A model generated the notes under the pieces. That model was not told where the DNA came from. It saw nothing but the letters and a program-made list of their open reading frames with translations, and did not search any database. Shown here in pieces: positions 23,701-53,771 of a DNA stretch of 64,000 nucleotides. Positions within the stretch are counted from its first letter, which is position 1. Each line of letters begins with the position of its first letter. The stretch is from a bacterium (GTDB lineage: Bacteria; UBA10199; 2-02-FULL-44-16; JAAZCA01): NCBI GenBank assembly GCA_963674695.2, contig CAXXGI010000002.1, positions 512,001 to 576,000 of the forward strand, written 5' to 3'. The translations under genes and the position numbers were made by a program.

Positions 23701-26700
23701 GGGAGTTACCCCGCAGCCGCCTGAGTGCACCGACGATCGCATGTGTACGCTCGATGCCGAGTGCAGCGATGATGACATCTGTACGAACGACACCTGCGGT
23801 CAGTCCTATCCGGGCTACTGCGACGGTTCGGTTCAGATTCCTCGTTGTGGAAATGACTGCGACGATGAACACCCATGCGGCAATGGCCTCGTCTGCACCG
23901 GCGGCCAGTGCATTCCCACCGATATCCCCTGCGACGCCAGCGCTGACTGCGACGATGGGAATGCCTGCACCACCGATGTCTGTGCTGAAGATGGCACCTG
24001 CGCCTATACCGAGACCACCTGTCCGGAGGGTGAGAGCTGCAACCGGGTCACCGGCCAATGTGCAGTGAGTTGCCCTGTGGGTGAGATCTATCACGAGGCC
24101 GATCATACGTGCAGTCACCTCGTCGATGGCGCGCTCGTCGAATTTTCAGCGACGGCCGGCACGGGTCAGTGGAGCGGCCAGACGACATCAGTCGGCGTTG
24201 GCGCCTATGAAGGCCCGATCGTCGGCATGACCATTCCGGCTGCGCTTACCATTCCCGGCAAGAGCGTCTCCGCTCTCTCCGGCGGCGTGATCGGCAGCGC
24301 GGCGGTGACGATTCCAAACGTGCCCGCAAACATCCGCCTCCTGCTCTCTCGTGAAGAGGTCTTTGAAGAGGATCGCAGTCTCGGTCGCGATGCCGCGCGG
24401 CGCCTGAAGGCCTATGCCTTCGTGACCGACGCAAACGGCCAGCCGGTCGAGGGCTTGACCGACGTTGTTTTTACAAAGAACGGGACGCCGCTTCAAAAGA
24501 CGCAGGGTCAGGATCAGCGCCAGGGCCTCTACTATCAGCTCATCGATGGGATCGATGGGGCGAGCTCCATCGCGGTGAGCGCGGGATCCGTTGCGGCAGC
24601 GCCGCAGGAGGTTGCGTTCGTTTCGGATCCGGATGTTGTGTCGCTTCCGAACGATTGGGATGTGTTGCTCGACCTTCCGCGCCGCACGCTCTATCGGGGC
24701 CAGGAGTTTACGATCCCTGTGCGCGTGAATACCGGTGATCAGTTTGGTGTCATGGCGTTCAACTTCCCCGTCGCCTTCGATGCTGATGCCTTTGAATTCG
24801 TTCGCGTTGAAAAGGGGAGCGGCGGCGCATACCTCATGGACCTGCAGCAGCCGACTGCGCAGGGGGGACAGGTTGTCGTCAACGGGGCCAAGGATCCGCA
24901 AAAGGTTGCGACGCTGGGCGATGATGTGGAACTCATTCGTCTCGTCTTCCGCGTGCAGGATGATGAAGCGACGGTGGTCGCATCCCCACGCCTCTTCACC
25001 GCTACGGCGAATCAGCTCTATTCGATGCAGGTCATCCCGGGCCAGGGCAATCCCAACCATGGAAATGGAAAGGTGATGCAGGTCCTGGATCGCACGGGGA
25101 TTTCGAATGCTGGCGTGGTCGTCGTGGAGCCCGAGGCGTATCTGGGCTTGGCGGCTTATATCGAGGACAACGATTGGGTCGACTATCGGCAGGTCAACCA
25201 GGCACGCGTACCTCCAGCGAGCGTGGTATGGATTAAGGGTGTCAGTACGCGCACGCAGGCGCCGACGGATCTGGTGGCCAACGGCGTTGTTTCGATTGCG
25301 AGTCTCACGGGCGAACCGGAAAACGCGGGCCTCGCCTTTGCGCCGGAAGGTGCCGGCCTGGGTATCAGCCTGGCACCGAATGTCCACAGCTCTCAATCGT
25401 TTGCCGTTCGTCATGGTACATCCGAGATCGAAGTACCCATCAGTGTCACCGCGATTTCGTCGTCCGATCTCCAATTCGAACCGGCATCGAGGAGCATCAC
25501 CCTTGGTCGTCTAGCTGAGGGAATCTATGAGCCGATTCAGATTCGGGCAAAGGCGGAAAAGAATGGAACGACATATGACGTCACCGATGTGATCTCCTGT
25601 CAGGCCACAGGCCCCGCGACGGTTCACGATGGGTGCATCATCGAACCGTCGGCCATCGGTCCGATCTCCCTTGTCCTTGCAGAAGATCAATCATTTGCCC
25701 TCACGGTGGCCGATAGCCCGGTGACGATCGAAGGTGATCTCAATGTCGCGATCGTCGGCTCTCTGGATGTGCAAAAGGTAAACGGCACGGCGGTTGGCGA
25801 TGAACCCATCGAGGTCGCAGGGGGCGTTGCGCGCGTGACGGCAGAAGCGACGAATATCTTCGGCGCGAAGGTTGCCTCTCCCGTTCGCGTGACGGCCAAT
25901 TTCTCGTCCGGTCGCACGGTGGATGTGACGCCGATCGTGGCCGGTTCGCTCGAGCTTCGCGGTCAGGGTGAAGCGGTGCCTTCACTCGCTCCGGTTTCGG
26001 GCGAGCCCGGAATGTTCGAAGTGGTGGCACCAGGGATCAGTTTTATCGATGCCCGCTTCGGGGACGCGATGGGCACGGGCGTGGCGGTGGTCGACCTGGG
26101 TGAGGCGAGCTTCGAGGTGACTCCGATGGCGGCAGCGAGTCACGGGTGCAGTCCCGCTGATGCCGAGGATCGCTCCTGCAAGCTTACTCCTGCAGATGAC
26201 TGGGCACGGCCCATTCGCGACTATGGCGCGACCATCGATTTTACAGCGCAACTTACGTATGAAGCGGATCCGGAGCATCCCTTCGATGTGACGCAGGGCG
26301 CTGCATTCGAGGTCGAGGCGATCGATGGGAATCACATCGTCGTTGAGGCGGTCGCTGGCGTGAATGGTCGCTTTGCGGTCAGCGCCGGTGCCGCGCATGG
26401 CGCGAGTCTTGTCACAGCGAGCTATGCGGGGATGACCTCCTCGTGGATCGTTTTGGTGACGGGGATCGACGAGTTCCGCATCGATCTCTTCGAGGACTTC
26501 GATCCGCTCACGACCGACGATCCGCGTTTCGTTGCATTTACGGGCGATCCCGTCGCGGACGCCGACTTTCAGTTGATCCAGGATATCGATTACCAACGCG
26601 GTCGCGCCAAGGTGATGGGGCGCTGGACCGATGGGTCGTGGATGAATCTGACGCGCGAACCGGGCGCGGTGAATCTGGTTTCACTCACCAGTGAAGTCGT

Positions 26701-29700
26701 TGGCATTCCCATCGCCTGGACGACGGCTGCGGAGTATGTCCTGGTTCACCCGCAGGCCGATGGCAGCGGTGACCTGGTCGTGTCGGTGCCCACGGCACCC
26801 GATGCGCCTACGGTGAGAAAGGCCGTGAGCGCGGGTGGAACGATTGCCGTGAATGCGATCGCGATCCTGCCCGGCGGCGGCGCGAACCGCGAGCCGATCG
26901 ATGCCTTTGACGGAACGATCTCGGCCATCAAAGATGCCTCCGCGGACCTGCGCGTCGGCATCAGGATGGCCGATGACACGCGCTTCCTCGCGGCCAAGGA
27001 CGGTGCACAGACGGTGACAGGCGAGACGCAATCGCTGCTCTCATTCGCCCGGAGCGATATTCCCTTTGCGAATGATTCGGACGATCGCTCCATGGCCGTC
27101 GATGTGACCGAGGGCGCGGGCGATCCGAACGGCGTCGTCGTCCGCGCCAATGGTGCGGCGAATATCACGGTCTCGGCGATCGGCAATGCCACGACGGGTG
27201 AGACGCCCTACGCCATCAACCTTCTGCCTGCAATCGGGGATGTTGACCTGGGTGTCGATATCGTCAATGGCATCGACATCGGTCGTTTCATTCCGGTGTT
27301 GGCCTCGGGGGGAAGAAAGACCGTCGAAGTCTTCGTCAACACGGGTGCGGCGCAGCTCAAAGGATATGATTTTGAGTTCTTCTATGATGCGCGGGTCTTC
27401 AGCATTGAGGAGATCAGACCAAATATTACGGGTGTCTTTACGGGTAACCGTCTCGAACCCGAGGGCGCCACGGGTGATGAATCCGGCCACCTGCTCATCA
27501 ACGGCATCGCCGATCCAGCGGTTGGGCCGGGGCGCGTCAAGATCGCCGAATTCGATATTCGTGCGGTCAAAAGTGACGTCAAGATAACGCACGTGACGGG
27601 ATTTGTGAATGCCCTGAGCGATGTGAGCGGTGCGCCGATAGGTACCGCCGGCCGGCATGCCATCGTTGCGGGCGACGGCTACGTCGATCCGGTCAATGTG
27701 CCGCGCGGCAACCTCGCTCCGGAAGACGATTCCTTCGATATCAACGACATCATCATGGTTGCCGAGTTCGACCAGGGGGCTCGCCCATTCGATGACGAGC
27801 AGCAGGCAGCGGCCGACTATTCGCACTCCGGTCTGCCCATCGACAGCCTCGATGTGGCGAAGGGTTCCGAGCTGCTCGCACTCCTCAATCACTTCGTCGA
27901 TCTTGAAGCGACTGTAAATGAAGACGGAACCGCACGGCTCTCCTTCGCGATCATCAATCGCTATGGCCAGTTTGTGGCGGACGCACAGTATGTGCGCTTG
28001 CGCCTCATCGTAGGTGGTGAAGGGACGTTTGAGATCGTCCAGCCGGCAGAGGACGATGGCACCTATTTGGCGGTGGTTGATGGTGATCGGTATGTCTTGA
28101 ATATTCGAAATGCCGAACCGGGTGCCCGGGCGCAGATCGATGCGATGCTCGAGGTGGTCGATACGAACGATCCCGATCGCGTGACGATCAACGCGATCAA
28201 TTTCGGCGTCGTGCAGTTTACAAATACGCCTGGCTGCGATGTCGATTCCGATTGTCCGCAGGAACCGGAGATAATGGTCTGTATCGACGGCAGTTGTGAA
28301 GAACCAATCCCATGTGAAAACGATGATGAATGTAACGGCGCCGGCTACGATTTCTGCGACGAGATCGAAGGCGTCTGCCGTTCCTGCCCCGAGGGCGAGT
28401 TCTTCGATGGAGAGGCCTGTGTTCCGGGTACGGGCTGCGACACCGATCTCGACTGTCCCGATGATCAGGTCTGTTACGAGGACGCCTGCGTCGTTCCGGT
28501 CGAATGCTCCTCTGCCGAGACCGTGAATGCCCCCTGCACCGATGACAATCCCTGCACCGAGAACGATAAATGCCAGGCGGACAACTCGTGCGTCGGAACG
28601 CCTGTCACCTGCCAAGCTGAAAACGGATGTCAGGTGGCAGCCAATGACGGTGCGTGCGACGAGACGTTCGGGTGTACATACGTCTCCGACTGTCCCGACG
28701 AGAACCAAATCTGCACGCCGGCAGGACAGTGCGAAGAACCGCAGGCCTGCGTGGTCGGTGAGTCCGGTCAGACCTGTCAGCCGGATCCGGAAGACATCTG
28801 CATGGTCGGCGAGTGCCTCGATGATGGAACATGCGGCGAAGCGAGTGCCATGCACGATGGGACCGAATGCGGCGAGAACGCCCTCTGTCAGGGCGGCGAG
28901 TGCCGCGAGCGTTGCACGATCGATGTCGAGTGCGACGACGGCCTCTTCTGCAACGGGACCGAGAGCTGTGCCGATGGTCTGTGCGCGGCGGGCACGCCGG
29001 TCGCGTGCAACGGCGATCAGATCTGCAACGAGATCACCGATGCGTGTGAGGAGCCGATCGATTGTACCGGCGATGATGGCTGTCAGCCCGAGGAAGATGC
29101 GGTTTGTTACGCCGGCAGCTGTGTGGAGATGACGGGCGAACCGCTCTCAGGCCACTGCCAGTTCGATGCAGTTTCGGATGGGACGGAGTGCATGACGGCA
29201 ACGATCGCCGCGGGCCAGTGTCTGGCCGGCAACTGCCGTCCGGTCTGCCAGACGCAGGGCGACTGCCCCGACGAGAGCGATCACTGTCTCGAGGGCGTCT
29301 GCGATGCGTGTCCGGAAGGAACGACCTGGTATCAGACCGGTGCCGATACCGGCGAATGCCGCGTGATCGTCGATGGCTGTACAGCCGATACGATCGGCGC
29401 GGCGTGTGATGATACAAAAATTTGCACCGTGAATGATGTTTGTCAGGCGGACGGCATCACCTGTGCGGGTACAGCTTTCTCTTGTGATGATGGCCTCGGT
29501 TGCACCACGAACAATACCTGCGATCCGACCCTCGGATGTACCTATGTCTCTCTCTGCGATGCGGATGAGCTCTGTCTCGCAACGGGTACTGCACCGAACG
29601 GCCAGTGCGTGCCCACGGTTCTGGATTGTAACGGTCAGGCGATAGGAAGCACCTGCGCGATCGAGGACGATCGCTGCCGCGTCGGCGCATGCGTCGTCGA

Positions 29701-32700
29701 AGGGGAAGCGGCATCCTGCGGCGAGCCCTTCGCGGCGTTTGCGGATGGCACCGCTTGCGGCGAAGGCGCTTACTGCCTGAATGGCGAATGCCGCGAGCGC
29801 TGCACGAGCGCTGCCGAGTGCGACGATGGCCTCTTCTGTAACGGAGCAGAAACATGCGGCGCCGACGGTTTCTGCGCAGCGGGTTCGCCGGCATGTGATG
29901 CGACGACCGAGCGCTGCGATGAGGTGAACGCGCGCTGCGTGAGCCTTGTGTGCGGAAACAACGAAGACTGTGCGGCGAACGAGGAATGCATCGAAGGTCT
30001 CTGCACGCCGCGCGAACTGTCGTGCGAAGGGAACGACGACTGCACGTCATTCAGCGGTCTCTGCGGTATCGGGTTCTGTTCGGAGAGTAATCTCTGCGGC
30101 AGCGATGTCTTCGCCGATGGCACTGCCTGCACGCGCGAGGATGGTCGGCCGGGCACTTGCTCCAGCGGCATCTGCACCATCGGGACGGACTGTGACGCAA
30201 CGAGCTGTCTGATCGACGATGCTTGTGTGGCCGAGAATACTCGCAATCCGGAGAACGACTGCGAGATCTGCACGCCGGATCAAAACGCATTTGGATGGAC
30301 GGTCGTGGACAGCTTCCAGGAATGTACCCTCGACGGTTCAACGGGCGAGTGTCGTGCGGGACAGTGTTTCATCCTGTGCCAGATCGATGAGGATTGCGGC
30401 GAGGGCGTGCTCTGTCGCGGTGGAGTCTGTATCACCGCCGGAACGGCCGAGGGGCAGTTTGTCCAATTCAGCGGCGATGCGAATGAGCACGCCTTCTGGG
30501 CGGGCGATCTGGATGAGGCCAGTGCGACCTACGGCGGCACGATCGTCGGCCCGTTTGCGCAGCGTGCATCTCAGTCGGTCACCACGCGCGTGGTCGACGC
30601 CGCCGGTTCCGGCGATGGCTTCGGGCAGCTCGTCGGCACGAAGTCGGCAGCGCGTGCGCTTCCCGAGACGGCTGCGAGCGCAGAGTTCGTCGTGCCGATC
30701 CAGCAGCTCTTCTCCGATGCACGCCCGGGCGGCGATCCTGAAAACCATGGCCGCACGCTCTACGCCTACATGATGCCGCGCGATGACGAGGGTCGCCCGA
30801 TCGTCGCTTCGCCGACGAATGTGAACTTTGCCCTGAGAAATGGTGATACGAGTATCTCCACGTTGACGAGCGGTACGGTGAGGAATGGCCCTGTTCGCTA
30901 TGCGAGCCAGGCCCTTGCCAACGATCTGCTCCAAAACCAGGAGGGGCAGCGCTCGCTTGTCGCACGTTATAACAGTGCGGATGTCGGTGGCGCGATGGAA
31001 TCGATCACGATCGTTGCCGATCAGGGGCATGCGCCGCTCGCGCCACAAACGATTCTGCTCGACCTGCCGCGCCGCGAACTCGCGCCAAACAAGACCTTCT
31101 GGATTGACGTGCGCGTGAACACCGATCCGGATCTGCTCAGCGGCATCACGCTCTTCGTCTTCGATATCGATTTCACGAATACGCCCTTTGCCTATGCGGG
31201 TGAGGTACAAAAGGGTGCAGATGGTCAGGCTTTTGGCGAACCGATCGTCACGACGGATGCCGATCGTATCAACGTGAAGCTGACACCGCCGTCGATCGTC
31301 GCGGGCGGCGCCGACCAGCTCTACGCGCGTGTGAAGGCGCGTGTGCGCGCGAACGCATCGACGCCGCAGACGGCGGGGATTTCCGGTGCGCTCGTGACCC
31401 TCAAGGATCAGTTGAGTGCTGGCTTCGAAGGGCGCGAGATTCCGGCGGTGGCTGCTAACGGTCACGGCGGGAATACGATGGCCGTCGTCGATTACAGTGC
31501 GATCGTCGGTTCCATCGGGTATCTCTCTCGCGAGTTGCTCATCGATCGCCAGTGGGTGGCCGAAGAAACAGCACAGACATCGACGGCGAATCGCATCGAT
31601 GTCTTCGCCAACGGTGGCAATACGATTTCGCAAGCAGCGGTGCCGATGCAGATCATCTCCGGCGGCGATGTCGTCGAGATCGACGGGAATGCGCTCTCCG
31701 TGAAGGCGAGTGCGGCCAAGGGGATGCACGATGTCGCGGTGAACGTCCTGCGCGACGGTGCGGTTGCGACGGCGAACCTCCCCGCGCGCGTCATGCGCTT
31801 CCCGACCGCCGCGCTCGAACTGTTGGGAGGACCGCGCAAGACGGACCGGCGTTTGGAATGGATCGAGAATAGCAATTTCTACCAGCGCACACAGATTCGC
31901 GTTGGCATGACCGTCGACGGTGTCGAATACGACTTCACCGACAGCATCGATTGTGCCGATATCGAACAGGTGCCGGAGAAACTCGCTCTCGATGCAAACT
32001 GCCATCTGTCGGTTCCGGAAGGGGTGCGCAGCGATGTGATCGCCCTGCGCTATGACGGCGCTGACCTCGGTTCGATCGCGATCGATCAGGAGAGGAGACA
32101 GCGCATTGCGCGCGTTCTGGTCGGATCTGCCGGTTCGATGACGATGCCGAATCCGGCGTCCGACGGGTTCACCATCCCGGCGTCCGTTTCGCTCTCCAAC
32201 GAGTTCCAGGTGCAGGGGCACGAGGGGCCCGTGGCGGTCTGGCTCGTCTATACCGACGGCCAGCAGGCCGAGGTGACCCACGAGGCCGAGCTCGTGATCA
32301 AAGACGGCGATCAGAGCGAGTTGAATCCTTTCCGCCTCGATGCGGAGAACAAACGGGTGACGGTTTCCGAGAACGGCTGGGCCGCGGTGCGCGCAAGGCT
32401 CGATGGGGGTATGGGTTTTGGCATGCTCGTCGGAAACCTCGGCGAGGCCTCGCTCGTGGTGAAGGTGGGCGACACTGTTGTCGGCGTCGACTCCACCGTT
32501 GACCTCGCGCGTTCTCAGTCCGATCTGGCGCATGCCGCTGCGGGCATCCCCTATGAGCTGCCGATCACGGTCTCGACCTGTTACGGAACGAACTGTTCCG
32601 GTGGTGGCTCGAACGTGACGACCGTGGCGACCTATGATGTTCAATCGGGTGGTGAAATCGCGCGCGTCGATGCGAGCGGCGATGCGCGTCTGTTGCGCAT

Positions 32701-35700
32701 CAATGAGAGTTCCTTTGTCGATCAACAGCTTGCCGCCGGTGGCGAGGGCGCCTGCCAGGTCGTGACGGTTTCAGTCGGCGGCTTTGAGTCGGTTGACTTC
32801 ACCGTCTGCGGGCGCACGATGCAGGCGGCGGCCGTTCAGTTTACCGAAGACTTCGATCCAAATGCGAACTATCCGGAAGCGTTCCGGCCGATCGCGGTGG
32901 GTGAGCGTGAGCCGACCTCCGGTCCTTCACGTGCCATCACCGGTGAGACGCGCGTCTTTGACGATGCCTTCGGCCTGGTGCAAGCGCCGACCGGATTCCA
33001 GCGCGGTCGCGCCAAGGTCTGGGGGCGCTTCGAGACCTTCGATAATGCGAATCTCTGGAAGAACCTCCTCGATCATCTGACGGATCGAGAACTCATCCTG
33101 AATGGTTCGGAAGCGATCACATTTGGTCAGAAGGTGGGAACTGCTGCCGATGCCTATCGCGTCATTACGCCGCAGGGGGAATGTCCCAGTTGCTCGGTCG
33201 CGTTGAAGCTCGAAGACAATGCGAAGGTGGCACGCATCTTTGACGATGCGGGTGCCTTCAGCGTGTCGACGACGAACGAGGCGGTCGATCGCCTCGCCCT
33301 CTTCGGCGCCTCCGCCAACATCCGTAATCACCTGGGGACATCCTTCGGACAGGGTGCGATGGAGGAGACCTTCGACGGTTCGCTGGGCGCGGTAAAGGGG
33401 ACGGCGGGAAGCATGCGCGTCCTGGCGCGCACGGCCGGCGATGACAGTCGCTTCATCGCCGTGGAAGGACCCGCCCAGCGCTATGCCGACCTCGTGACGG
33501 TCGCGATGCAGCGCCAGCCGTTGCCCGCGGATGCGTCATCCGCAACGGCGCGTGCCTTCAGTGCCTCCTGGGCGGCCGAGCCTGTCTGTGCAGGATCAGG
33601 CATGCAGGAGATCTGTGAGAGCCGCTCCGGCGAACTGAATGCCCAGCAAAACGGCGCGGTGGGACTTGCGGCGAAACTGACCGATGATGACACGATGACG
33701 AGCGAGCCGTATGCCCTGGCCGTCAACCTCCTTCCCGCATATCGCGACGTCGACGTCGGCGGATACGAGGACTATGTGCAGCAGCCCGGACGGTTCATTC
33801 GCGCCCTGAATGCCGGCGATCAGCAGCCGATCGATGTCCTGATCAATATCGGCGCGGGTAATGAACTCTGTACCTATCAGATGATGCTTCAGTGGTTGCC
33901 GGGTGCGCTCTTTTCCTACGTCACGGGTTCCGGCGAAGAGTTCCTCGGCAGTCCCGTCGGTGCCGGCGGCATCACGCCGCAGCCGGGTGCAGATCCGAAG
34001 GTCGTGAAGATCGGCGGTACCAATCCGAACGGCTGCATCGCGGCCGATCCGACTACAGGCCTCGTGCGTGTGGCGCGCTTTGTCCTCGAAGCGGCAAGCG
34101 GTGGAACGGCCGAGCTTTCCGGATCGCTTGAACTCCTGCAGGGGCGCGCGAGCGGTAGTGGCGGCGAGATCACCGATCTCTGCGCGGCATCGGGCGACTG
34201 CAGCGCGTTTACGCCGGTGGCGCCGCATGTCATCGTCGCCGGCGCGGGTTTCATCGACCCGGCTATGGGTGCAGCGTGTTCACGGCCGGACGATTGGCCC
34301 TGCGACGAGAGCCTCTGCGTGCAGGGTCGCTGTGCCGGTCAGCCCGACGGCGTGCCGTTCATCTTCGATACGGCGACGGATGCCTCCTACTTCCGTGGCG
34401 ATGCCAACAAGGATGGCCTCATCGACCTGAGCGATTCCTCTGCGGTGCTGCTGAATCCGGATGCGATCACGCCGGTGGCGGTGGGCGATCTGACTTACGA
34501 CGGTACGGTCACCGATTACGATGGCGTCAAGATCGCGCAGACCTTCCTGGGACGCTCCTTCATTCCGTATGCACGCCAGGCGCAGGACATCGATGGTAAA
34601 CGCCGCATCTCCGTCCTCCTCAAGGGGGTCGATGCAGCGGCGACGCCGAATGTGGAAGACGCGACGGTCTCGATGCGCTTCCCGGATGGTGCGGTCACCA
34701 TTCCCGAAGAGGTCTCCTGTGAGGATGGTTTCTGCCAAGCGACGAACACTTCCGGTTCCATCTTCTCCATCGATGTGACGCCGACCGATCCGACCGCCTC
34801 GATCGCCTACGATCTCCGGGTCCAAGTCTATGACAGCGGCGAGGATCTCGTCTTCGCCGAGACCTATCGGGGATTTATGACCTCCTGCACCACGGACGCC
34901 CAGTGTGCCTCCGGCCAGGTCTGTGATCCGAGCGGGATCTGTGTCGACTCCTGTCTCGATGCTGAGGGCGATGCCGACGATATGCGCTGTGCAGCATCTG
35001 TCGCCTGTGCGGTCGGCAGCTGTACGGAGGAGACGGGTGTCTGTTCCTACGACTATAATGATGCAGACTGCGACGATGGCAACGACTGTACGAGTGACAC
35101 CTGCGATGCGATCGACGGCTGTACATATGCGAGCGTGCCGATTGGGAGTGCGTGTGATGAGGATGCTGGCATTTGCGTTGCAGATGATTTCTGTCAGCGC
35201 TTCTGTAGCGCTGAAAATCCATGCCCGGAGGGCCAGGAATGTGTGAACGGTAGCTGCGTGCCGCCGCTGAATTGTCAGACCATCGACGATGCGAGCTGTG
35301 ACGCCCTCGACGACGGATTGTGTCTGGCCGGCGCCTGCGATGTCGAAGCGGGAACCTGCGAGGCGACGCCTGTTGCGAACGAGACCGCGTGCGGCGCGCA
35401 GGGGCGTTGCGTCGACGGCGTCTGCGAGACCGGTTGTGACGATGATGACCAGTGTCCGCGCGGCCACTGCGATGACGAGACCGGCCAGTGCGTCGCTGGT
35501 TGTGAAGCGCCCACGCCGTTTGAGTGCCCCAACGGCGTCTGTGCGGCCGATGCTGACAGCTGCCCGTGTGCAGACAGTGCCGACTGTGACGACGGTGACC
35601 TCTGTACGACCGATACCTGCGTCAGCGGTACCTGTTCGATGACGCCCAAGGACTGTGCCGCTGATCTCGATCTGACCTCGACCGACTGTCAGGAGGCCAT

Positions 35701-41700: not shown

Positions 41701-44700
41701 GGCCTCGACCTGGAACAGCGCGGATGAAGACTACAGCGGCGAGGTCCTCGCCGTGAGTGCGCCCGGCGGCGAGGCGGTCGACTTTACCGCGACGCTCATG
41801 CGGATGAACGGCACGCCGTTTGCGCAGGCGATCCAGGCGAGCGAGGATTTCGATCCCGCGACGCCATATGCGATCAAGCTCTTCCTGACGCGCGAGGCGA
41901 TCTTCGAGGATGCGCGCATCCGGGATGCCAATAAGTCGCACAGCGTTTCGGCCTTTGCCTTCGTCACCGACGCGCGAGGGCGTCCGGTGAACGCAGATGC
42001 CGGCGTGCAGTTTCGGATTGGAAGCGACACTTGGTCTCCAGGGGTCAACGGCAAGTACAGCGGTGTCGATGGCCTCTATGCGACGACGCTCGAGGTGAAC
42101 GCGACGGAGAACACGATGATCTCCGCGCGCTTTTGGGACGTGGGATTTCCGGAAGCGTCGAAGGATGTCGCCTATCAGGCCGATCCCGACGTGACGGATC
42201 TTGCGACCGTCGGCGACATGGTCCTCGAACTGCCGCGTCGACCCATCTTCCCGGGGCAGGATTTCTGGACGACGATCGTGGCCAACACGAATGTGACTGA
42301 TTCCCAGGATCAGTTGATCCATGCGATTAAGGTGAAGGTCATCTATGACGCCGCATCCTATGAATACCGCGCGGTTGATCGCGCCAATAACGGGAAACAG
42401 TTCGGCACGGTGAATGCGGGCGTGAATGATCTGGATGCTGGACGCAAGGAGATCACGCTCTTTGCGACCTTTGATTCGAACTCCGGCTCTGCAGCGCCGA
42501 TGCTCGCCGATCGCGCGGAGCTGCTCGATTTGAACTTCAAGTTCATCGGTGGCAATCCGGGCACGATCGAGGTGAAGCCCGTCGAGCTCCTCTATAAAAA
42601 GGATGGCACGTTCAAGAATATCGTTGATCTCAATGCGAATCCCGCAACTTCAATCTATCCGGCATCTGGACTTAACGTCGCGACCGACGATGTGGTCGGC
42701 TTCGCCGCCGCGATCGCTGACACCGACTGGGTCGATCGCTCCGGCATCGGGGGAACTGCCGATCCGCGCACGATCGACGCGCATCTCATTCGCGCGTATA
42801 CCTTTGTGGATGAAGCCCTGACCGTTCAGGTTCAAGCACCGGCGCCGTTTGTCGCTGATGGGAAAAGTGTGTCGCTTTCGGATGCGGCGCCGGCATTCAG
42901 CAAGGGAACGATCACCGTCTCCTCGAGCGACCTCGGAAATGTCTCCTATCCGATTGAGCTCTCCGCCGATCGGATCTTCCGCGCATCCTGCGCGCTCACC
43001 TTCGAGGGGTTCAATCCCCCGTTCGTGTTGGGGAGGGTGACGCAGACGAGTTTCCAGCGTGCTCAGGGGCGTGTGCTGTGTAAGGACGGCGATCGCGTCG
43101 TCTACGACCTCACGCATGAAGTGCAGTGCCAAAAGGTCTCCGGTGATGCCAATGTCCACAACGAGCTGCTCGCAAGCCGTTGCCTCGTTGCGCCGACCTC
43201 TCTCGGTGAGCTGAGGATCCAAGCGGTCCGCGATGAAGCGCCCGTTGGCGAAGTGATCGAATTCAAAGTGAGCAGCGATCAGGTTGCGGTCGATGAACTC
43301 CTCATCGGTGTTGCCGGCTCGGTCACCGCGCCGAAAAAGCCTGACGAGATAAAGCTCGCTGTTTCGGGGATCCAGGGTGCGGATACCGCGCGCGCGGTTT
43401 CGGCCTCTGCCTTCAACCGCTTCACCGCGATGGAGAACGGGCCGATCGTGGTACTCGCGCGTTATGCGGGCGGCACGACCGCCGACACGACCGCCGATGT
43501 GACCGATCTGGTCCTCGATTCCCTGAGCTTCATGGGTGGGGCCGTGGCGCCGGTGGAAGAGGGTGGTGCGCGCAAGCCTGAGGTGCGCGTCCTCGAGCCG
43601 GGCATCACGACGATCACCGGGAGTTATGCGGGCAAAGAGGGCAAGGGACATGCGATCGTCGCCTTCCCGGGTGAGCCGAAAGTTCACGTCGCGCCGACGG
43701 GAACGGTCCTGCTTTCTCCTTCAAACGATGATTGGGCGAAAAAGCTGGGCAACATCCCGACCGAGCAGGCTATGGTCGTCGATGTCTTCTATGGTGATGA
43801 TCACGCGAACGCCGATGCCATCTATGCAAAGGCGGCGGTGGCGACCTATACGAACGGCACACCCGAGGCGGAGCGCGTCGTCGAGGTGGTCGGCGGCGTC
43901 GTGCGCCCGATTGCGGGGCGTGGCATGGGTTCGGATGAGATCTGTATCACCGTGCCAGGATTTGATTTTGCTCCCACCTGCGTGAAATTTACCGTCACCG
44001 GCATCGATGGCCTCGAGGTCAAGACCTACGAGGACTTCGACCCGAAGGATACCTATCCCGAGGGGTTCAAGCCCGCTGCGGGCGACAAGCCCCAGGTCGA
44101 GCAGAATGCCTTCGGTTTCGTCGAGGGGATCGACGTCTATCAGCAGGGCCGCCTGCGCGTGCAGGGCCACTGGTATCACAATGACACCTGGATCTGGCTC
44201 ACTGACATCACGAACTTCTCCAAGCTCGACTCTTCGCTCCTGCTCGAGACCACGGTGGGCGGAACGATGCGCACCGATGTCGTGGGGATCGCTCCAGCGC
44301 CGGCCACAGGTCGCGATTACTTCGGACTGACACCGCTGATGCCGGCTGAGGCGCGCATCGTCGCGCGCCCCGCAGCCGGGGCGAGCACGGCGGGCATCGC
44401 GGGGGTGCGCATCATCACTATCGCGGATGATCCGGTCGATATCGATCTCCTCGAGATCCTATCGACGAGCTTCTCAACTGCAGGCGCGGGAGTGAGTCGC
44501 AAGAGCGTTTCCGATACGCTCATCGGCGGTGGCGCGACGGCGTTTGCCGGGACGATCGGCGGCGAGCGCGCAAGCTCCCGTTCGCTCACCGTCGGTGGAA
44601 GATTTGCAAACGGCGGCGCGCGCGCAACCCTCGTGGCAAACGGCGTGCAGCAGGTCAGCGATGAGGGCGCTCCTCTGGTGACGATGGGGATGAACGCGAC

Positions 44701-47700
44701 GGGCTATGAGAATCGCAACGCCGCAACGTCAGTCGGTGAGAACGGCACGATCGTCGCCGGCATCCACGACAACGGTGCGGTGATGGTGACGCTAGATCTG
44801 AATCGTGACACGGCGAGCGCATTTGCCGCGACCGCACGCCCCTATGCCATCAACCTCACGCCGAAGGTCGGCGATGTCGATGTGGGCGAGATCACGGGCC
44901 GATTCGTCCCGGTGCTCACGGGTTCCCATGAGGTCGAGCTGCGCATCAACGCGGGGAATCTGCACCTGAATAACTACGAGATCACCGTGACCTATGATCG
45001 TCGCGTCATCGATGTGGCGGGCGGCGCGGGCAACTATGCCATCACCAATCTTCTGGCGAATGATTCGAATATCACCGGACAGGAATTCAACGCCAAGGTC
45101 GAGGTTGCCGATGCCCCGCCGGATGACACCACCGGGCGCATCAATCTCTTCTGGACGGTGACAGCGGGTACGAGCCCCACGGGCGTGATTCCGGTGGCGA
45201 AGATCACCTTCGCTCCTGCGACATCGAAGAGCAGTGGCGATTCGATCACGAACCTCTCCGGTATCATCTTCGCCATCAGCGGTAAGGCCGATATGGGTGG
45301 CACGAGCACGCCCATCGGCGGGACAAACGAGCGCACCTTCGATGCGGGCACGGGGCTCGTCGATCCGCCGACCGGAAACGTGAACGAGGATGAAGCCGGT
45401 GTTTTCAACGGCTTCGACACGGCCAGGATGCGCGAATATATGGTCGAAACGATCGGTGCGGATGATCTTGATCTTTCCGAGGCCGACTTCGACTACAGCC
45501 ACGAGGTGCGGGGCGCTGACGCGACGGTGGAAGCCGGCGATATCGCCGGGTCGGATGTCGTCCAGGCCGAGCAGCTCCTCGTGGGCAACTACTACTTCAT
45601 CGAACCGGTCATCGCGCAGGTGAATGGTTTGAGCGCGAAGCTCTCGGTCGTCTTCCGCGACAAGAAGCGCGAGCCGGTCACTGCCTCCATCCGTCCGGAA
45701 ATCGCGGTTGCAGCGCCAGCCGGTGCGGCGCTCTTCCAGGATGAATCGCTCTTGCAGCCGCTGGTTGCTGGTGAAGCGGGATATGAAATACTCGTGAAGC
45801 CGACCACTGGCCGCGATGCCTTCACCGCCTGGATGCAGCTCCCGGCGGGTTCGACGGAGACGACCTTTACCGTCCGCCTCTTCGTTCTCGACCAGAACAA
45901 TGCGAGCATTGTTCTCAACGACAGCACCGCGACCTTCATGCGCGCGCTGGCGCCGAGCTGTCAGAGCGGTGCCGATTGCGAAGAGGGCTTAAGCTGCGTC
46001 GACGGCGCCTGCATCGACGACTGTCTCGATGACGGCGATTGCGACGGGCTGCTCTGCGATACCGACACCGGCGTCTGCATCGATCCGAACGAGTGCACGA
46101 CCGACGAGGACTGCCCGGATACGGAATACAACGATCGCTACTGCGATCAGCAGACGAACCAGTGTGCGGCCTGTCTCGGCGGGTACCATTGGGATGGAAA
46201 TTCCTGCGAAGCGGGCGAAGAATGTGATGATGAGAATCCCTGCGATGAGGGCTTCATCTGTGCCGACGGCGAGTGTCGTCCGCAGTGCAACTTCTCCATC
46301 GATTGCCCCGATCTCAACCAGATCTGCGTCGACGGCGCCTGCATCGTGCCCGAGTGCGACGAGGGGTATGCCTGGGACGGCATGAGCTGCATCTGCGTCG
46401 CCGATTCCTGTGGCGGCAACGAGTGTCTCCCGCCGCGTCTGCTCGACGCGATGAGCGTCTGCGCCTGCCCGGGCGAGATGCTCTATGACCCGAGCGACGC
46501 CACCTGTATCGATGCGGATGAATGCCTCGAACCGCGCGCGGCCGATCCTGCCAGCGGCATCTGCACCTGTGCGGATGGGCTGCTCTGGACGGGAACCGAA
46601 TGCGTCGACGAGGATGAGGTCGAGTGCGGAATGGGTGCCCATTACGATGACGTCGCACGCGCCTGTGCCTGCGATTCCGGTCAGCAGGAGATGGACGAGA
46701 TCGGCGACTGCGTCGATCGCTGCGACGACGACGACTTCTGGGATGCCGTCGCGCAGGCCTGCGTCGAATGGGAATGCGCCGAGCCGTTGCGCAACTGGTG
46801 GGATCCGCCTGCGTGTTGTGCACAGTACACCGCCTACAATCCGGAGTATGACGCTGAGACGATGCCGGTTGAAGATCAGTGCACGGGTGAAGGCGAAGGG
46901 TGCGAGAATGATACAGATCGCCAGATTCCAAATACGGATCTCTGCTGCGCGTTGGATGCCATCTACGATGATGTCGTCGGCAGCTGTATGGATCGCTGTG
47001 ACGAGGGGCATGTCTGGAACGTCGATACCCAGAGCTGCGATCGCCTGAGCTGCAGCACCGAGGATCGCTGCCCGAGCGGCGGCACCTGCACGATCGAGAC
47101 GAGCCTGTGCGAAGGGGATGGAATCGAACCCTACGACTGCCTGCCCGACATGAGCTGCCCCGAGGGGTATCTCTGTGAAAACGGCGAGTGCCGTGGCGGC
47201 GGCGACGATCCGTGCGTGACCGACGAGGACTGCGCTGATGCCTTCACCTGTGTCGCCGGCGTCTGCAGCGAGTGCGATGCCAACGGCCAGTGTCCGAATG
47301 TGGCCTGCACATTGGCGACCGATTGCCCGGCGGGATTCGAGGCCGCGGTGCTTTCCTGTTCTGAGAGTGTCTGCAGCAACTGCGACACCCAAGGTGTCTG
47401 CATGCCGCAGCCGTTTGTCTGCGAGGCCAACCGCTGCGTTCCGACCGGCGGTGACAACGGCGATGAATGCGATACCGATGATGACTGCATCGAGCCGGGG
47501 CTCGTCTGCCGCGATGGTGTCTGCAGGCGTGACAATTTTGAATGCATCGATAACTGCGAATACGTCCCGGGCGCGAAGGTGGAGTTCGGCACGAATCCAG
47601 AGGATGCAACCGTCTGGACGCAGGATACGAAGGACGTTTGGCTTGCAAGCGGCGTTGATGCCGATCGCGGCAAATACACCAGCCACATCACGGCGCTCAC

Positions 47701-50700
47701 GCATCCGCTCAAAGTCGATGCCAAGGCGCAGGTGCGCGGGCGCAAGAGCGAGAGCCTCTATGACATCCTGACCGATCCGCTCGCGATCCTGACGGATTTT
47801 GCAGCGGAGCAGCCGAACGTGCGCCTCATCCTCAACCGGCGTGCGGTCTTTGAAGAGGTCGATTCGACCGCGGGGGCGAAGGGTCGGCGCATCAAGGCCT
47901 ATGCCTTCGTGCGCGATGCGCAGAATCGTCCGGCCGGTCCCGACCTGATGGACGTGAAGTTCCTCCTCGTCGATGGCGTGACGAACCTGGAGGTCGACGC
48001 TGCTGCTGTGAGCGGAATGCGCGGCCTCTACGGCGCGACGATAACGGCCCCACCGGGCGTCTTCGTCGCAGGCGAAGAGCATGAAGCCCAGGTGCAGGTG
48101 AAGGTGAACGGTGCTCCGATCTTAGCGAATGAGACCGATCCGTTGGCGGTTCCGATTGTGGTCCATCCCGATCCGGCGCGCGCGCAGCTGCTGGCGAACG
48201 TCGGCGACGTGCTCGTCGACCTGCCGCGGCGCGAGATCGTGGGCAGCGAGAGCTTTATCCTGCCGATCCTGGTCAACTCCGGAACGCAGGACCTGATGGG
48301 GATCGAGTTTACCCTCAGCTATGATCAGGCGCGTTTCGAGTTCCTCTCCGGCGGGCGTGGCGCCGGTGTCCCTGCAGGGGCATCGATCATCACGGATCCC
48401 GCAAATCCGGGGCAGGCAGACGGCAGCGTGCGGGTGAGCATCTTCGTTCCCGAGAGTGCCGGACGACGTGCCGGTGCAGCGCTTGAGGTCTTCCGGATGG
48501 CGTTTCGTCCGCGGGGCATCACCGGCCAGGGCGGCGATTTCCGTGCGAGCGTCACCGCGCTGCGCACGACCGGCGATTATCCGATCGGCCCCGACCGGGC
48601 GCGTGATGCGCAGGTCTTCTCGCGCGCAGGTCTCGGCGTTCAAGGGGATGTCGATGTGGTGGTGCGTGCGATCCAGGGGTTTGCGGCCTCTGCCGTGATG
48701 GATGATCTCAATGACTTCACCGCCATCGGCGGCCCTGCGGCGGCAACGCTGGTGCGCATGCCGATCGTATATAATGATGAGGCTGCGCCGATCGATGCAG
48801 CGGCAACCGCCAGCGCGGTGCTAACCCCACTGGGTTCCATGCAGACGATCGCCGCCGAGGGGCGCGTGCAGCTGCGTCCTGGGGCGATGCCGACGCCGAG
48901 CGATGGCGTGCGCGTCTCGTTCTCGGGTGCGGCCGGTTGCGCCGGCGGCACGAATGCTTGCAGCGCCATCACGATTCCGTTCACGGTTGCAAAACTCGCG
49001 ACCGATGCTCCGGAGACCTTCTTCGTCGAGCCGCGGGCACAGACCGTGACGCTCTCCGCCATCAGCGGGACGACGGCCTTCCGTCCGCTTTCCCTCCGGG
49101 CCGTCTGGAACCGCCCGATGGGCGACGCGGATTCGGTGCCGTTCGATGTGACGCACATGCTCACCTGCTCGAGCGATTCGGGCCAGATGATCCCCCCGAT
49201 CGCCTCGATGCCCTGTTACTTCACGGCGCAGTCGACGGGAAACTTCGAGGTGACGATTCGCGGCGGCGATTTCGCCAAGACGTTCAACGTCGAGGTCATT
49301 GCATCGGCCGATCCGGTCAGCGAGATCTTCGTCGCCGTCCCCGGCATCTTCAACCCACAGCCTGAAGGGTTGGTGGGTGCAGTGAATGAACAGGGCGTGG
49401 CGCCGGCCGAGGCCCTGCTCACCAACCGCCTCAAGAAGATCGGTTCGCGCGCACCGGTTGCGGTCTGGGCGCACATCAAGGAGGAGTGGAGCTTGGTGAC
49501 GCCGCTCGTCGCGGCGGATAGTCTGACGGTCACGCAGGGCGACGGTTCGGTCCTCACCCTCGATCCGCAAACCGGCGAGGTGATCGTCCAGGGTCCGGGG
49601 CAGGCGATCGTCACGGCGAGCTTTGGCGAGATGGCTGATGGCAGCCCCGCCCGAGGAACCGGAACGGTCGATGTCCTCTTCGACGGCGTGGGCGAGGTGA
49701 GCGTCGGCGTGCCGACGATGCTGGCGCGCTCGCAAGGTGATCTGGCACAACGCGTCCTTGGTCTCCCGACCTCAAACACGATGCAGGTCGATGTGAACTG
49801 GGGGGCGAACGGGAGCCTACGCAATGTCCAGGGGCAGGAATGGGTGACGTTTGAAAACCTCGACGGCGCATCCGAGCAGGTGATCACGGTCAATGTCGAC
49901 GGGAAATACAGCGTGCGCGAGGATTTTCCGACGGGGCTCAATCTTCAGGATCCGAACGACTGGTGCGATGACATCCAGGTCACGCTCACCGGTCGCGGCG
50001 AGATGGACGGGGCTGCGGGTGAGAACGCCCAGGTCATCACCGACGGAAACGGCGACAACATCGGCGTGACGATCACCGAGCGCGTCTGCGTGGTGACCCT
50101 CGAGTCGCTCGGTGTCGCTACGAACGAGGACTTCGCCGCACGAAGCGACGATCCGCAGGCGTATCAGGGAACAGTTGCCGACAGTCTCTTCACGCCGATC
50201 TTCACGGCGAGCGATGGATCGATCTTCTATCAGCGCGCTCGTGTGGTCGTGACGGCGAACTGGACGGGTGGGCAGGATGCCGTGCGGCTCACGCCCACAA
50301 ATGCGGTCGTCAATGCGGTGCTCGGCGTGGATTCCGGTTTGGGATCGGTCGATGTCGGCGACGCCATCTATCGATTTGTGCCGAGTGGGACGACGGGGAT
50401 CGGAAACGTCCGAGCCAATGTACCCAAACAGGTTGCGCCCGACTTTGACGACCTCATCTATATCGATGCGATCTTCGGCGAACACCCGATCGAGGTGAAG
50501 GCCGATCCTGCGGGCGATGGAACGATGGCGCAGGTCGAGATCCTCGGCTGGCGCGTCGAGCGCACGCAGGGCTATACGCCCGCGCGGACGTCAGCGGGGG
50601 TGGATAGCAGCAACGTGCCGATCGCGTTTGCCGGGACGATCGGTGCCGGCGGTGCGGTGGCAAAGGATGCCGTTCGCCTGCGCCTGGTCGGAACGATGGC

Positions 50701-53167: not shown

Positions 53168-53240
53168 ACGGTGAACGGTGAACGGCATAGTATATCATAT
53201 TTGCTGTTTACGGTTTACCGCTTACTGTTCACCGTTTACG
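53164..53240. repeat. Inverted heptamer element (GTGAACG)3 - AT-rich loop - degenerate (NGTTYAC)n containing the stop codons of both convergent genes
   Basis: The giant gene TGA (53165-53167) is in the first unit. The ybhB-like TGA (53229-53231) is in the inverted arm. Confidence 0.85.
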
Positions 53241-53756
53241 TCTATACGTTCCCATCATCTCTGTCTGCGCCAGAATGCGATCTTTCATCGCGTGTTTGAG
53301 CATTCCCTTGTTGGCTTTCTTGGGGAGTGCGAGCAGGCGATCGAGCGCATAGAGCTTGAAGTAGTAACGGTGTTTTCCGCCCGGCGGGCAGGGGCCGCTA
53401 TAGCCGTATTTGCGGGAATCGTTCAAGCCCTGCTCGCTTTCATCCGGAAGTTTTTCCGTCGGTGCGATCTTCTCGGCAAGCCCGGTTGCGGTTGCCGGGA
53501 TATTCCAGATGACCCAGTGCACCCAGACGCCCATCGGCGCGTCCGGATCGTCGGCGATGAGCGCAAAACTCTTTGTCTTTTTTGGCGCACCGCTCCAGGT
53601 AAACGCCGGCGAGATGTTTGCCCCGTCGCAGGTATACTGCGCCGGAATCGGCGCGCCGTTCGTAAATGCGGGGCTCGTGAGTTCCAAGGCCATGGCATCT
53701 CCTCCCATGATAGCGGTGATGAGAACGATCGTTGCGACGATAAGGGTCCGTTTCAT
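53229..53756 (-). CDS. YbhB/YbcL family (PEBP/Raf kinase inhibitor-like) protein, exported
   Basis: Signal peptide, YTCDGANISP, DDPDAP, WVHWVIWNIP, YSGPCPPGGKHRYYF. Confidence 0.95.
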   Translation of the reverse strand: MKRTLIVATIVLITAIMGGDAMALELTSPAFTNGAPIPAQYTCDGANISPAFTWSGAPKKTKSFALIADDPDAPMGVWVHWVIWNIPATATGLAEKIAPTEKLPDESEQGLNDSRKYGYSGPCPPGGKHRYYFKLYALDRLLALPKKANKGMLKHAMKDRILAQTEMMGTYRRKR

Positions 53757-53771
53757 AGATTCCCTCCGAGG

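Follow-up and report, generated by a model that had tools for sequence, protein, structure and literature searches.

The question raised by this locus is whether a bacterium carries the domain array known from the extracellular part of animal TMEM132 proteins, and in what kind of protein it does so. The DNA concerned is a stretch of 64,000 nucleotides from a bacterium of the UBA10199 lineage (assembly GCA_963674695.2, contig CAXXGI010000002.1, positions 512,001 to 576,000 of the forward strand), the whole of which we call the window, and which encodes a giant protein of 12,808 amino acids (aa). The TMEM132 ectodomain has been described as a cohesin followed by three BIG domains, with an early holozoan origin, and the same work records cohesins as common in prokaryotes (Sanchez-Pulido and Ponting 2018, PMC6030884). 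An earlier note, in which the comparison was made by eye, had read the first half of each repeated module of the giant protein as a counterpart of this ectodomain and the protein itself as a bacterial member of the family. We consider it likely, with good rather than full confidence, that the first halves are remote but genuine collinear homologues of the TMEM132 cohesin and BIG1-3 array, linked to it through protist intermediates and Pfam models; the same judgement covers jointly the view that the window protein belongs to a family of giant extracellular proteins spanning bacteria and eukaryotes. The protein is nevertheless a relative of TMEM132 and not a member of that family, as the order of its domains is the only one of the family characters tested that it shares.

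The repeated region (window 24660-49690) lies within a single open reading frame (ORF; window 14741-53167, forward strand) that has a GTG start and zero internal stops, and its limits are the first cohesin of module 1 and the third Ig-like domain of module 5, both included. Self-comparison resolves five super-modules of about 1,900 aa, starting near aa 3105, 5207, 7127, 8937 and 10910, and local profiles divide each of them into a pre-cohesin part of about 220 aa, a first half of about 480-500 aa and a second half of about 710-850 aa. With module 2 as the query, self-BLASTP recovers modules 1, 3, 4 and 5 at 22-24% identity (E 2e-43 to 1.7e-13). The five first halves were aligned with MAFFT to give A1, a profile built from window sequences alone, in which the modules are 23-29% identical to module 1 and 22 columns are invariant (L13 P14 R15 F24 N31 ... 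D314 T316 C321 C333 ... P415 V418). The six motifs that the earlier note had listed can all be placed in each of the five modules, in one order and at corresponding alignment positions, with strings looser than those written there: LPRR is found in four of the five (LPRN in module 3), YQR is literal in module 2 alone (FQR in module 4, Y/F-x-P in the remaining modules) and GPVAV is likewise literal in module 2 alone, while G..A/G...D at the start of the first Ig-like domain and D.T....C with a second Cys are present in all five. The first halves score 565-617 bits each against the A1 hidden Markov model (HMM), although these are the scores of the profile's own members; independent relatives in other genomes reach up to 225 bits. 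The motif and repeat series is far above chance. In the following list D1 to D3 are the three Ig-like domains, and the E-values are those of A3, a protist-type alignment of six sequences, five of which match the Pfam model Ig_TMEM132_4th (PF16070).

24665-26122, forward strand: module 1 array, with cohesin1 24665-25132, D1 25133-25462, D2 25463-25753 and D3 25754-26122 (A1 boundaries; A3 E 9.4e-9)
31055-32461, forward strand: module 2 array, with cohesin1 31055-31495, D1 31496-31807, D2 31808-32128 and D3 32129-32461 (A1; A3 E 3.1e-4 on D3)
36761-38236, forward strand: module 3 array, with cohesin1 36761-37258, D1 37259-37594, D2 37595-37906 and D3 37907-38236 (A1; A3 E 3.5e-11, profile positions 22-371)
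42221-43690, forward strand: module 4 array, with cohesin1 42221-42685, D1 42686-42988, D2 42989-43312 and D3 43313-43690 (A1; A3 E 0.01, cohesin start only)
48212-49705, forward strand: module 5 array, with cohesin1 48212-48664, D1 48665-49003, D2 49004-49339 and D3 49340-49705 (A1; A3 E 2.7e-4 on D2-D3)
21932-22642 (aa ~2398-2634), forward strand: module 0, a truncated copy consisting of a D2-D3-like part only, without cohesin or D1 (A2 HMM, 26.2 bits, positions 290-487)

Module 0 lies upstream of the five modules, outside the region that the earlier note covered, and holds the best direct PF16070 match of the genome (17.3 bits, E 0.009, window 21941-22171).

When A1 was searched against 1.84 billion representative proteins at E<=1e-3, it returned 152 proteins, and 12 of the 150 listed matched in one stretch from the cohesin to D3 (P0001, P0002, P0003, P0009, P0014, P0018, P0020, P0023, P0042, P0086, P0131 and P0146); the remainder of those listed matched mostly in the last domain only, as generic Big_2 repeat proteins, or in the cohesin only. 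Four of the twelve are algal, namely P0014 (E 9.9e-16) and P0018 (6.4e-14) from the haptophyte Pavlovales sp. CCMP2436, and P0042 (1.1e-9) and P0086 (9.2e-6) from the green alga Cymbomonas tetramitiformis, which also provides P0154 and whose proteins bear the UniRef name 'Transmembrane protein family 132 fourth domain-containing protein'. All four exceed the PF16070 cut-off of 27 bits (76, 45.1, 33 and 47.1 bits, respectively), and P0146 falls just under it at 24.3 bits. Profile-profile comparison with hhalign places A1 on A3 with a probability of 99.2% (E 1e-19, 406 collinear columns). The figure rises to 99.8% (E 9.6e-28, ~420 collinear columns) with A4, a bacteria-only alignment of 13 rows, of which five are the window modules, seven come from three further genomes of the phylum and one is P0002, a protein from a metagenome-assembled genome. 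Reversed A3 gave 0.1% (E 0.62) with A4, five column shuffles gave 0.0-0.1%, and all controls stayed at 0.3% or less; the reversed and shuffled controls argue that compositional bias is not the cause of the match. Taken singly, each A4 domain finds its collinear counterpart in A3 as the best match (cohesin 98.0%, D1 92.2%, D2 93.5%, D3 61%), the single domains of the shallower A1 fall in the same places with lower probabilities, and D1 with D2, without cohesin or D3, still reaches 97.8% (E 9.8e-13) at the collinear place. Conversely, when A3 was run over the six frames of the 3.03-Mb genome that holds the window, it gave five matches, all in the giant ORF, one per module and at the right place in each (E 3.5e-11 to 0.01). 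The collinear significant matches over four domains that the earlier note had named as support are seen against the protist-type alignment A3, and its reading of a cohesin and three BIG domains holds at the level of remote homology.

The correspondence of individual domains was obtained by projecting the Pfam coordinates of the intermediates onto the giant protein through their alignment to the bacteria-only profile, with the following result.

aa 3319-3442: Pfam Cohesin of the intermediates
aa 3470-3574 (D1): Pfam 4th domain, PF16070, in seven of seven intermediates
aa 3593-3644 (D2): Pfam 5th domain, PF23486, in P0163 (39.7 bits) and P0171 (17.4 bits, below cut-off)
aa 3662-3779 (D3): Pfam 6th domain, PF23487, in P0163 (44.2 bits)

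We considered a shifted register in which D2 would equal BIG1, as the PF16070 match in module 0 might be taken to imply, and rejected it, given that all seven intermediates and the single-domain hhalign comparisons put PF16070 on D1. Two metagenome proteins with two super-modules each, P0163 (3,397 aa) and P0164 (3,345 aa), combine Cohesin, Dockerin_1 and the 4th, 5th and 6th TMEM132 domains, all above the Pfam cut-offs, which no other protein examined here does (P0163 was scanned directly, and the content of P0164 was taken from a precomputed list). Of all the intermediates, these two best connect the animal models with the bacterial modules. As leads only, we mention that P0002 (E 7e-62 to A1) ranks a haptophyte PF16070 cluster first in a language-model feature look-up (0.90), and that in a structure look-up the chordate TMEM132C ('T132C') cluster comes second (TM 0.38) and TMEM132D fourth (TM 0.33), both under the bar of the tool. 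The look-up also lists a PF16070 cluster of 161 members, mostly haptophyte.

A considerable set of observations weighs against calling the protein a TMEM132, and also against pressing the domain-by-domain equation too far. Checked against the Pfam TMEM132 models (TMEM132_3rd PF23039, Ig_TMEM132_4th PF16070, 5th PF23486 and 6th PF23487), as the earlier note had suggested, the window reaches no cut-off. The best PF16070 score in the 3.03-Mb genome is that of module 0, 17.3 bits against the required 27, with none in modules 1-5, and this match sits on the D.T....C...C motif, which is D2-type by collinearity and not D1. At E<=10 the giant ORF has no match to PF23486, PF23487 or PF23039; a 6th-domain match at E 0.094 comes from one of the five second halves. 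Among 93 genomes of the phylum none exceeds the PF16070 cut-off, and in two Myxococcales modules described below Pfam shows Cohesin only. In the 17-member alignment A2, PF16070 is matched by five members, the same count as the five of six protist-type members of A3. The protist stretches in A3 have no 5th- or 6th-domain match at E<=1, so that identifying D2 with the 5th and D3 with the 6th domain depends on two metagenome proteins, P0163 and P0171, of which P0163 is itself scored weakly by A1 (domains at -12.3 to 13.9 bits, collinear alignments at 2.0 and -12.3 bits). D3 reaches just the 61% given above and also resembles ordinary Big_2 (LigB, E 0.019), and HMMER attached a compositional-bias flag of 22.5 bits to the alignment of P0018, which is rich in Ala, Ser, Thr and Val. 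A Cys pair in the BIG1 region (A3 invariants C375 and C392) is present in the protist rows, P0020 and P0023, and in D1 of none of the five window rows, which instead have the invariant C321 and C333 in D2; to judge from the text of PMC6030884, the protist cysteines may be those of animal BIG1. A profile built from the ~220 aa that precede the first cohesin in each window module matches the bacteria-like P0003 and P0009 and none of nine protist-type proteins. Towards the C-terminus of the giant protein a hydropathy scan found no membrane-helix-like segment, the only other helix-like candidate beyond the N-terminus being an Ala/Val-rich, beta-like stretch at aa 7582, and the C-terminal tail has no recognised sorting signal or anchor motif. 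As regards function, which is inferred throughout, none of the sequencing runs listed as holding the giant ORF sequence is an RNA run.

These points bear on how the kinship is to be worded. The link to animal TMEM132 would be a transitive one, passing through the protist proteins and the Pfam models; homologue searches with A2 (proteins of 1,428-4,075 aa) and A3 (251-1,427 aa) returned no animal protein, and PDB searches with P0018 and the A1 profile returned no TMEM132 entry. Two of the 17 members of A2 have a weak direct Ig_TMEM132_5th match (best E 0.0075), and both must be bacteria-like, as none of the six A3 members matches. What stands of the earlier proposal is a collinear remote homology; what does not is membership, for which PF16070, PF23486, PF23487 and PF23039, the C-terminal helix and the BIG1 and BIG2-BIG3 Cys pairs all fail.

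The likeness to the algal giants extends beyond the array, into the second half of each super-module, where a second cohesin is followed by a dockerin.

27194-27694 and 27695-27937, forward strand: module 1, second cohesin-like and dockerin-like parts, respectively, the most degenerate copy (A5/A7 alignments)
33695-34606, forward strand: module 2, second cohesin-like and dockerin-like parts (A5/A7 alignments)
39518-40021 and 40022-40252, forward strand: module 3, second cohesin and dockerin, respectively (Pfam Dockerin_1, Cohesin)
44828-45640, forward strand: module 4, second cohesin-like and dockerin-like parts (A5/A7 alignments)
50972-51805, forward strand: module 5, second cohesin-like and dockerin-like parts (A5/A7 alignments)

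Pfam Dockerin_1 (PF00404) just passes its cut-off in module 3 (23.1 against 22.9 bits, window 40025-40162) and matches two of the five second halves at E<=1, dockerins of the PDB account for 20 of 24 rows with the A5 profile (at best E 4.9e-4), and two D.N.DG-type loops are visible in modules 2-5, module 1 being degenerate. Pfam Cohesin (PF00963, cut-off 24.1 bits) passes on cohesin1 of module 1 (27.9-30.8 bits) and stays below cut-off, at 15.8-21.9 bits, on cohesin1 of modules 3, 5 and 4 and cohesin2 of module 3, with 19.8-21.9 bits for the first and 16.8 bits for the second cohesin of module 3 (window 39608-39919). All five Cohesin matches in the 3.03-Mb genome, and its only Dockerin_1 match over cut-off, lie in the giant ORF. 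A second Dockerin_1 match, a weak one, is found at G000:C1:511444-511494 on the reverse strand (15 bits, E 0.09), in an open frame of 3,402 aa. The second-half profile matches P0042 (600-767 and 857-1122), P0154, P0014 (898-1243 and 2367-2557, two modules ~1,470 aa apart), P0163, P0164 and P0086 downstream of their first halves, and at the corresponding place P0163 has Pfam Cohesin at 86.6 bits and Dockerin_1 at 35.7 bits. The earlier note had remarked that a second cohesin with a GDxNxD motif recalls giant protist proteins, and these matches bear the remark out.

How widely the super-module occurs was assessed first of all in the window's phylum, from which 93 species genomes were scanned. 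A first-half match at E<=1e-5 was found in 8 of the 93, with full modules in two genomes of the same family as the window genome (G009 and G016) and in one of another family (G023); in these three the second halves directly follow first halves in the same ORFs. Two genomes of the same class contain 4-7 second halves each, in frames of 9,627 aa (G062:C10) and 12,096 aa (G064:C37), together with the cohesin part only of the first half at E<=1e-5, a content which suggests that the two halves can shuffle independently. Outside the 93 genomes, full modules are carried by two Myxococcales metagenome-assembled genomes (MAGs) of 7.6 and 9.3 Mb (L020 and L021), which A4 (110 and 55 bits) and the protist-type A3 (108 and 71 bits) recognise about equally. 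These two alone cover the module in a locus search based on P0023, most of whose 80 loci match MopE-like Cys repeats only, and a search of genome contigs with module 1 found no relative. A quick maximum-likelihood tree, unrooted, was built from 35 modules; it used only domains covering at least 350 profile positions and left out partial copies such as P0004, P0010, P0012, G048 and G062-G064. All 13 known or suspected eukaryotic rows fall on one side of a starred branch (99), and the modules of the window's family, 13 in number, are united in a single starred group (98), where modules 1, 2 and 4 of the window each have a partner from a different genome (100, 100 and 98). Because the window modules pair across genomes, the modules must have duplicated before the lineages split, with old duplicates kept in parallel. 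Being unrooted, the tree is compatible with transfer between the domains of life in either direction.

The remainder of the giant protein consists of an N-terminal region and the spacers between modules, with the features below.

14741-14860, forward strand: signal-peptide-like basic and hydrophobic N-terminal stretch, read from the sequence alone with no predictor
16139-16357, forward strand: thrombospondin type 3 repeats near the N-terminus (Pfam TSP_3, 27.4 bits, cut-off 25)
28241-30340, forward strand: Cys-rich spacer separating module 1 from module 2 (13-16 Cys per 100 aa)
~18941-20740, 23441-24040, 34841-36040, 40541-41590, 45941-47440 and 52241-53164, forward strand: other Cys-rich spacers (10-17 Cys per 100 aa)

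After the N-terminal stretch come an acidic low-complexity stretch and then the thrombospondin type 3 calcium-binding repeats, and these repeats are the only similarity to the NCBIfam model of an MtsC-like repeat region (34.4 bits against a cut-off of 350). The protein contains 556 Cys (4.3%), clustered in the spacers at 10-17 Cys per 100 residues, where Pfam gives weak matches to DUF7107, Adt-1 and ADAMTS_CR_2, each below cut-off; Pfam scans of window pieces matched nothing besides Cohesin, TSP_3 and such weak Cys-rich modules. The C-terminal ~300 aa (window 52241-53164) comprise a Cys-rich region, a Pro/Ser/Gly-rich tail, five glycines and a short Cys-rich peptide.

The picture that best fits these features is that of an exported, disulfide-rich modular protein, in which a signal-like N-terminus, thrombospondin type 3 repeats and Cys-rich spacers would accompany five super-modules and a truncated copy. 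Each super-module would be built as cohesin - Ig(D1) - Ig(D2) - Ig(D3), followed by more Ig-like domains, a second cohesin and a two-loop dockerin, and the same unit would be present in the haptophyte and green-alga giants with the Pfam TMEM132 4th domain, in the bacterial relatives and in the Myxococcales MAGs. Read in this way, animal TMEM132 would have kept the first array alone, joined to a membrane anchor. Export may proceed by way of the signal-like N-terminus, and the 556 Cys, the calcium-binding repeats and the Ig, cohesin and dockerin domains would suit an extracellular, oxidising location. The function, as far as it can be read from domain content, is probably multivalent adhesion, scaffolding or self-assembly. 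Cohesins and dockerins might pair between modules or molecules of the giant protein and so create a multivalent mesh or cell-cell contacts, the simplest candidate mechanism, though one that we would give appreciably less than an even chance. As the signatures are found nowhere else in the genome, any such pairing would be between copies or modules of the giant protein, or with partners on other cells.

That this is a real gene is well founded. The genome holding the window measures 3.03 Mb in three contigs and is scored 100% complete, and the frame is open over 38.4 kb; many shorter ORFs overlap it on the opposite strand and are taken to be by-products of the ~62% G+C content. Upstream lie genes for a deoxynucleoside kinase (dNK), PanB, PanC and an amidohydrolase, and downstream those for KsgA, TsaD and a BamD/YfiO-like outer-membrane lipoprotein. 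In 4-kb bins the G+C content is 0.57-0.645 across the giant ORF, compared with 0.58-0.62 in the flanks. With its housekeeping flanks and a G+C content like theirs, the giant ORF is a genuine chromosomal gene. A separately assembled Logan contig of 40,953 nt, which may derive from the source sample, is identical to the window over 24638-44637 (0 differences), a second sample yields pieces that likewise agree with the ORF, and the ORF sequence is present in three DNA sequencing runs, all of one study, which may include the source. An ORF of 311 aa (window 53178-54113, forward strand) begins 11 bases past the stop of the giant gene and matches no Pfam model. As its 3' part runs into the KsgA gene, which is encoded on the opposite strand, it may be shorter or spurious; should it be real, it might serve the giant protein as an accessory.

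Other explanations of the locus have to be set against the homology to the TMEM132 array. If the resemblance were generic, any bacterial protein with a cohesin and Ig-like (Big_2) domains should align equally well, and one might point to the failure of all four Pfam TMEM132 models on the window, to the PDB matches of D3 with LigB Big_2 (E 0.019-0.023) and of the cohesin with cellulosomal cohesins (E 0.034), and to the feature look-up of P0002, in which ranks 2-10 are Big_2 clusters bar a Cohesin cluster at 9, with 0.89 against 0.90. We regard this as improbable and already largely refuted, since Big_2 proteins in the A1 search match profile positions ~400-500 only and cohesin proteins ~10-150 only, just 12 of the 150 listed matches span D1-D2, and the named non-bacterial proteins among these 12 all carry PF16070. 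Moreover, D1 with D2 alone finds its collinear place (97.8%, E 9.8e-13) where reversed and shuffled controls are flat, and the second half of the module is shared too. It is similarly improbable that the protein is a cellulosome-like scaffoldin whose ten cohesins recruit dockerin-bearing enzymes of the same organism. Scaffoldins do combine several cohesins per molecule with dockerins, and the profiles match cellulosomal dockerins and cohesins, but at E<=0.1 Dockerin_1 is found in the whole genome in the giant ORF and in the one 15-bit match below cut-off, and no enzyme-linked dockerin was seen with this model, which covers type I only and could miss divergent dockerins. With cohesin and dockerin matches confined to one ORF an enzyme-recruiting scaffoldin is unlikely, and we rejected it for want of any over-cut-off Dockerin_1 match outside the giant ORF in the 3.03-Mb genome.

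Two further alternatives concern where the DNA came from. It is hardly credible that the giant ORF was created by faulty assembly or by the joining of eukaryotic and bacterial DNA within a metagenome bin: the genome is indeed a metagenome-type assembly and all three runs with the sequence stem from one study, yet the frame is open over 38.4 kb, bacterial housekeeping genes stand on both sides, homologous giant ORFs occur in other genomes, and the separately built 40,953-nt contig covers 20 kb with 0 differences, in agreement with the pieces from the second sample. Because the modules are only ~25% identical, repeat collapse or mis-joining via repeats is excluded. The gene might instead have been acquired recently from an alga or protist and serve as a eukaryote-like adhesin in a bacterium living on or preying on such cells. 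The nearest named non-bacterial relatives are algal, the spacers weakly match the eukaryote-type modules ADAMTS_CR_2, Adt-1 and TSP_3, and within the phylum the occurrence is scattered (8 of 93 genomes at E<=1e-5), points that speak for a recent transfer. Identity to the protist sequences is however as low as 17-20%, the window's family has its modules in a single starred group (98) with cross-genome pairs (100, 100 and 98), four more families of the phylum and the Myxococcales MAGs contain relatives, the eukaryotic rows all fall on one side of the starred branch (99), and the gene shows no GC break and has housekeeping flanks, so we hold a recent acquisition to be very unlikely.

Set beside these alternatives, the reading of the first halves as remote collinear homologues of the TMEM132 array makes the window protein a bacterial, multi-copy version of the TMEM132 supra-domain inside a larger conserved super-module. 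The array would then not be confined to animals and their closest relatives. Computed profile comparison places it in giant proteins of two bacterial phyla, with annotated relatives in a green alga and a haptophyte, and in these giants a second cohesin and a dockerin invariably accompany it. The family thereby gains a wider range, which would be surprising if the architecture is taken as an invention of holozoans, and less so given that the two domain types of which it is made have already been called bacterial. In the literature searched, no bacterial protein with the whole array was described, the supplements of PMC6030884, which are possibly relevant, lying outside that search. According to a 2026 preprint (PMC13692072), the TMEM132 architecture is absent from plants and fungi; PF16070 with a preceding cohesin is over cut-off in the haptophyte and in the green alga (Viridiplantae), which conflicts with the preprint as far as plants are concerned.

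One history that we put forward tentatively, and would not expect to prove right as it stands, is that the TMEM132-type block arose in bacteria, as the lead part of a cohesin-Ig-cohesin-dockerin super-module in deltaproteobacteria-like lineages and Myxococcota, and entered eukaryotes once and early. Haptophytes, green algae and the forebears of choanoflagellates and animals would then have inherited it or received it by spread, and animals would have trimmed it and fused it to a membrane anchor. If this were true, a self-assembling giant adhesin of bacteria would be the ancestor of a neural adhesion family of animals. The ectodomain of TMEM132 proteins, which are adhesion molecules linked to disease, is not known to bind any ligand; the loss of a dockerin partner would, on the same supposition, explain why none is known for the animal cohesin. 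The shared super-module itself gives a concrete hypothesis, namely that the TMEM132 cohesin once bound a dockerin within it, and the bacterial modules offer many diverged natural copies for structure and binding studies. The locus also adds to the animal cell-adhesion modules that have bacterial counterparts.

Among known systems, cellulosomal scaffoldins share with the window protein the combination of several cohesins and a calcium-loop dockerin in one secreted protein. The window protein differs from them in that no dockerin-bearing enzymes were detected in its genome, its cohesins are set in Ig arrays and Cys-rich spacers, and no carbohydrate-binding module was seen in the window pieces scanned. 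The lefftyrins, coherins and hedglings, cadherins of choanoflagellates and sponges, are like it, so far as a comparison by description goes (PMC6030884), in placing a TMEM132-type five-domain block within very large extracellular proteins; they are cadherin-rich, whereas no cadherin model matched the window pieces scanned. With animal TMEM132A-E the window protein has in common the order of a cohesin and then three Ig/BIG-type domains, the homology being drawn through intermediates. It carries five copies of the array per protein against one, has neither the C-terminal membrane helix nor the cytoplasmic tail that in TMEM132 bears WIRS and RVxF motifs, lacks the BIG1 Cys pair in D1 and has two invariant Cys in D2, and continues from the array into a second cohesin and a dockerin.

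Likenesses are also found in the PF16070-bearing giants of Cymbomonas (KAK3278768.1, KAK3278767.1 and KAK3276506.1) and Pavlovales (KAJ1626334.1 and KAJ1626336.1), where a collinear cohesin-D1-D2-D3 array is likewise followed by a further Ig-like part and a second cohesin, and on which the bacteria-only profile scores 85-113 bits. At 17-20% identity to the window these protist giants pass the 4th-domain cut-off and keep the BIG1 Cys pair, carry other accessory domains (NHL/teneurin-type in P0086), have no match to the window's pre-cohesin region and form a separate starred clade. A further set of counterparts is formed by the giants of the phylum (G009, G016, G023, G062 and G064) and of the Myxococcales MAGs (L020 and L021), which differ from the window protein in the number and mix of their modules but, like it, are built from first- and second-half modules, in ORFs of 2,200-12,096 aa, and show one-to-one orthology of modules across genomes.

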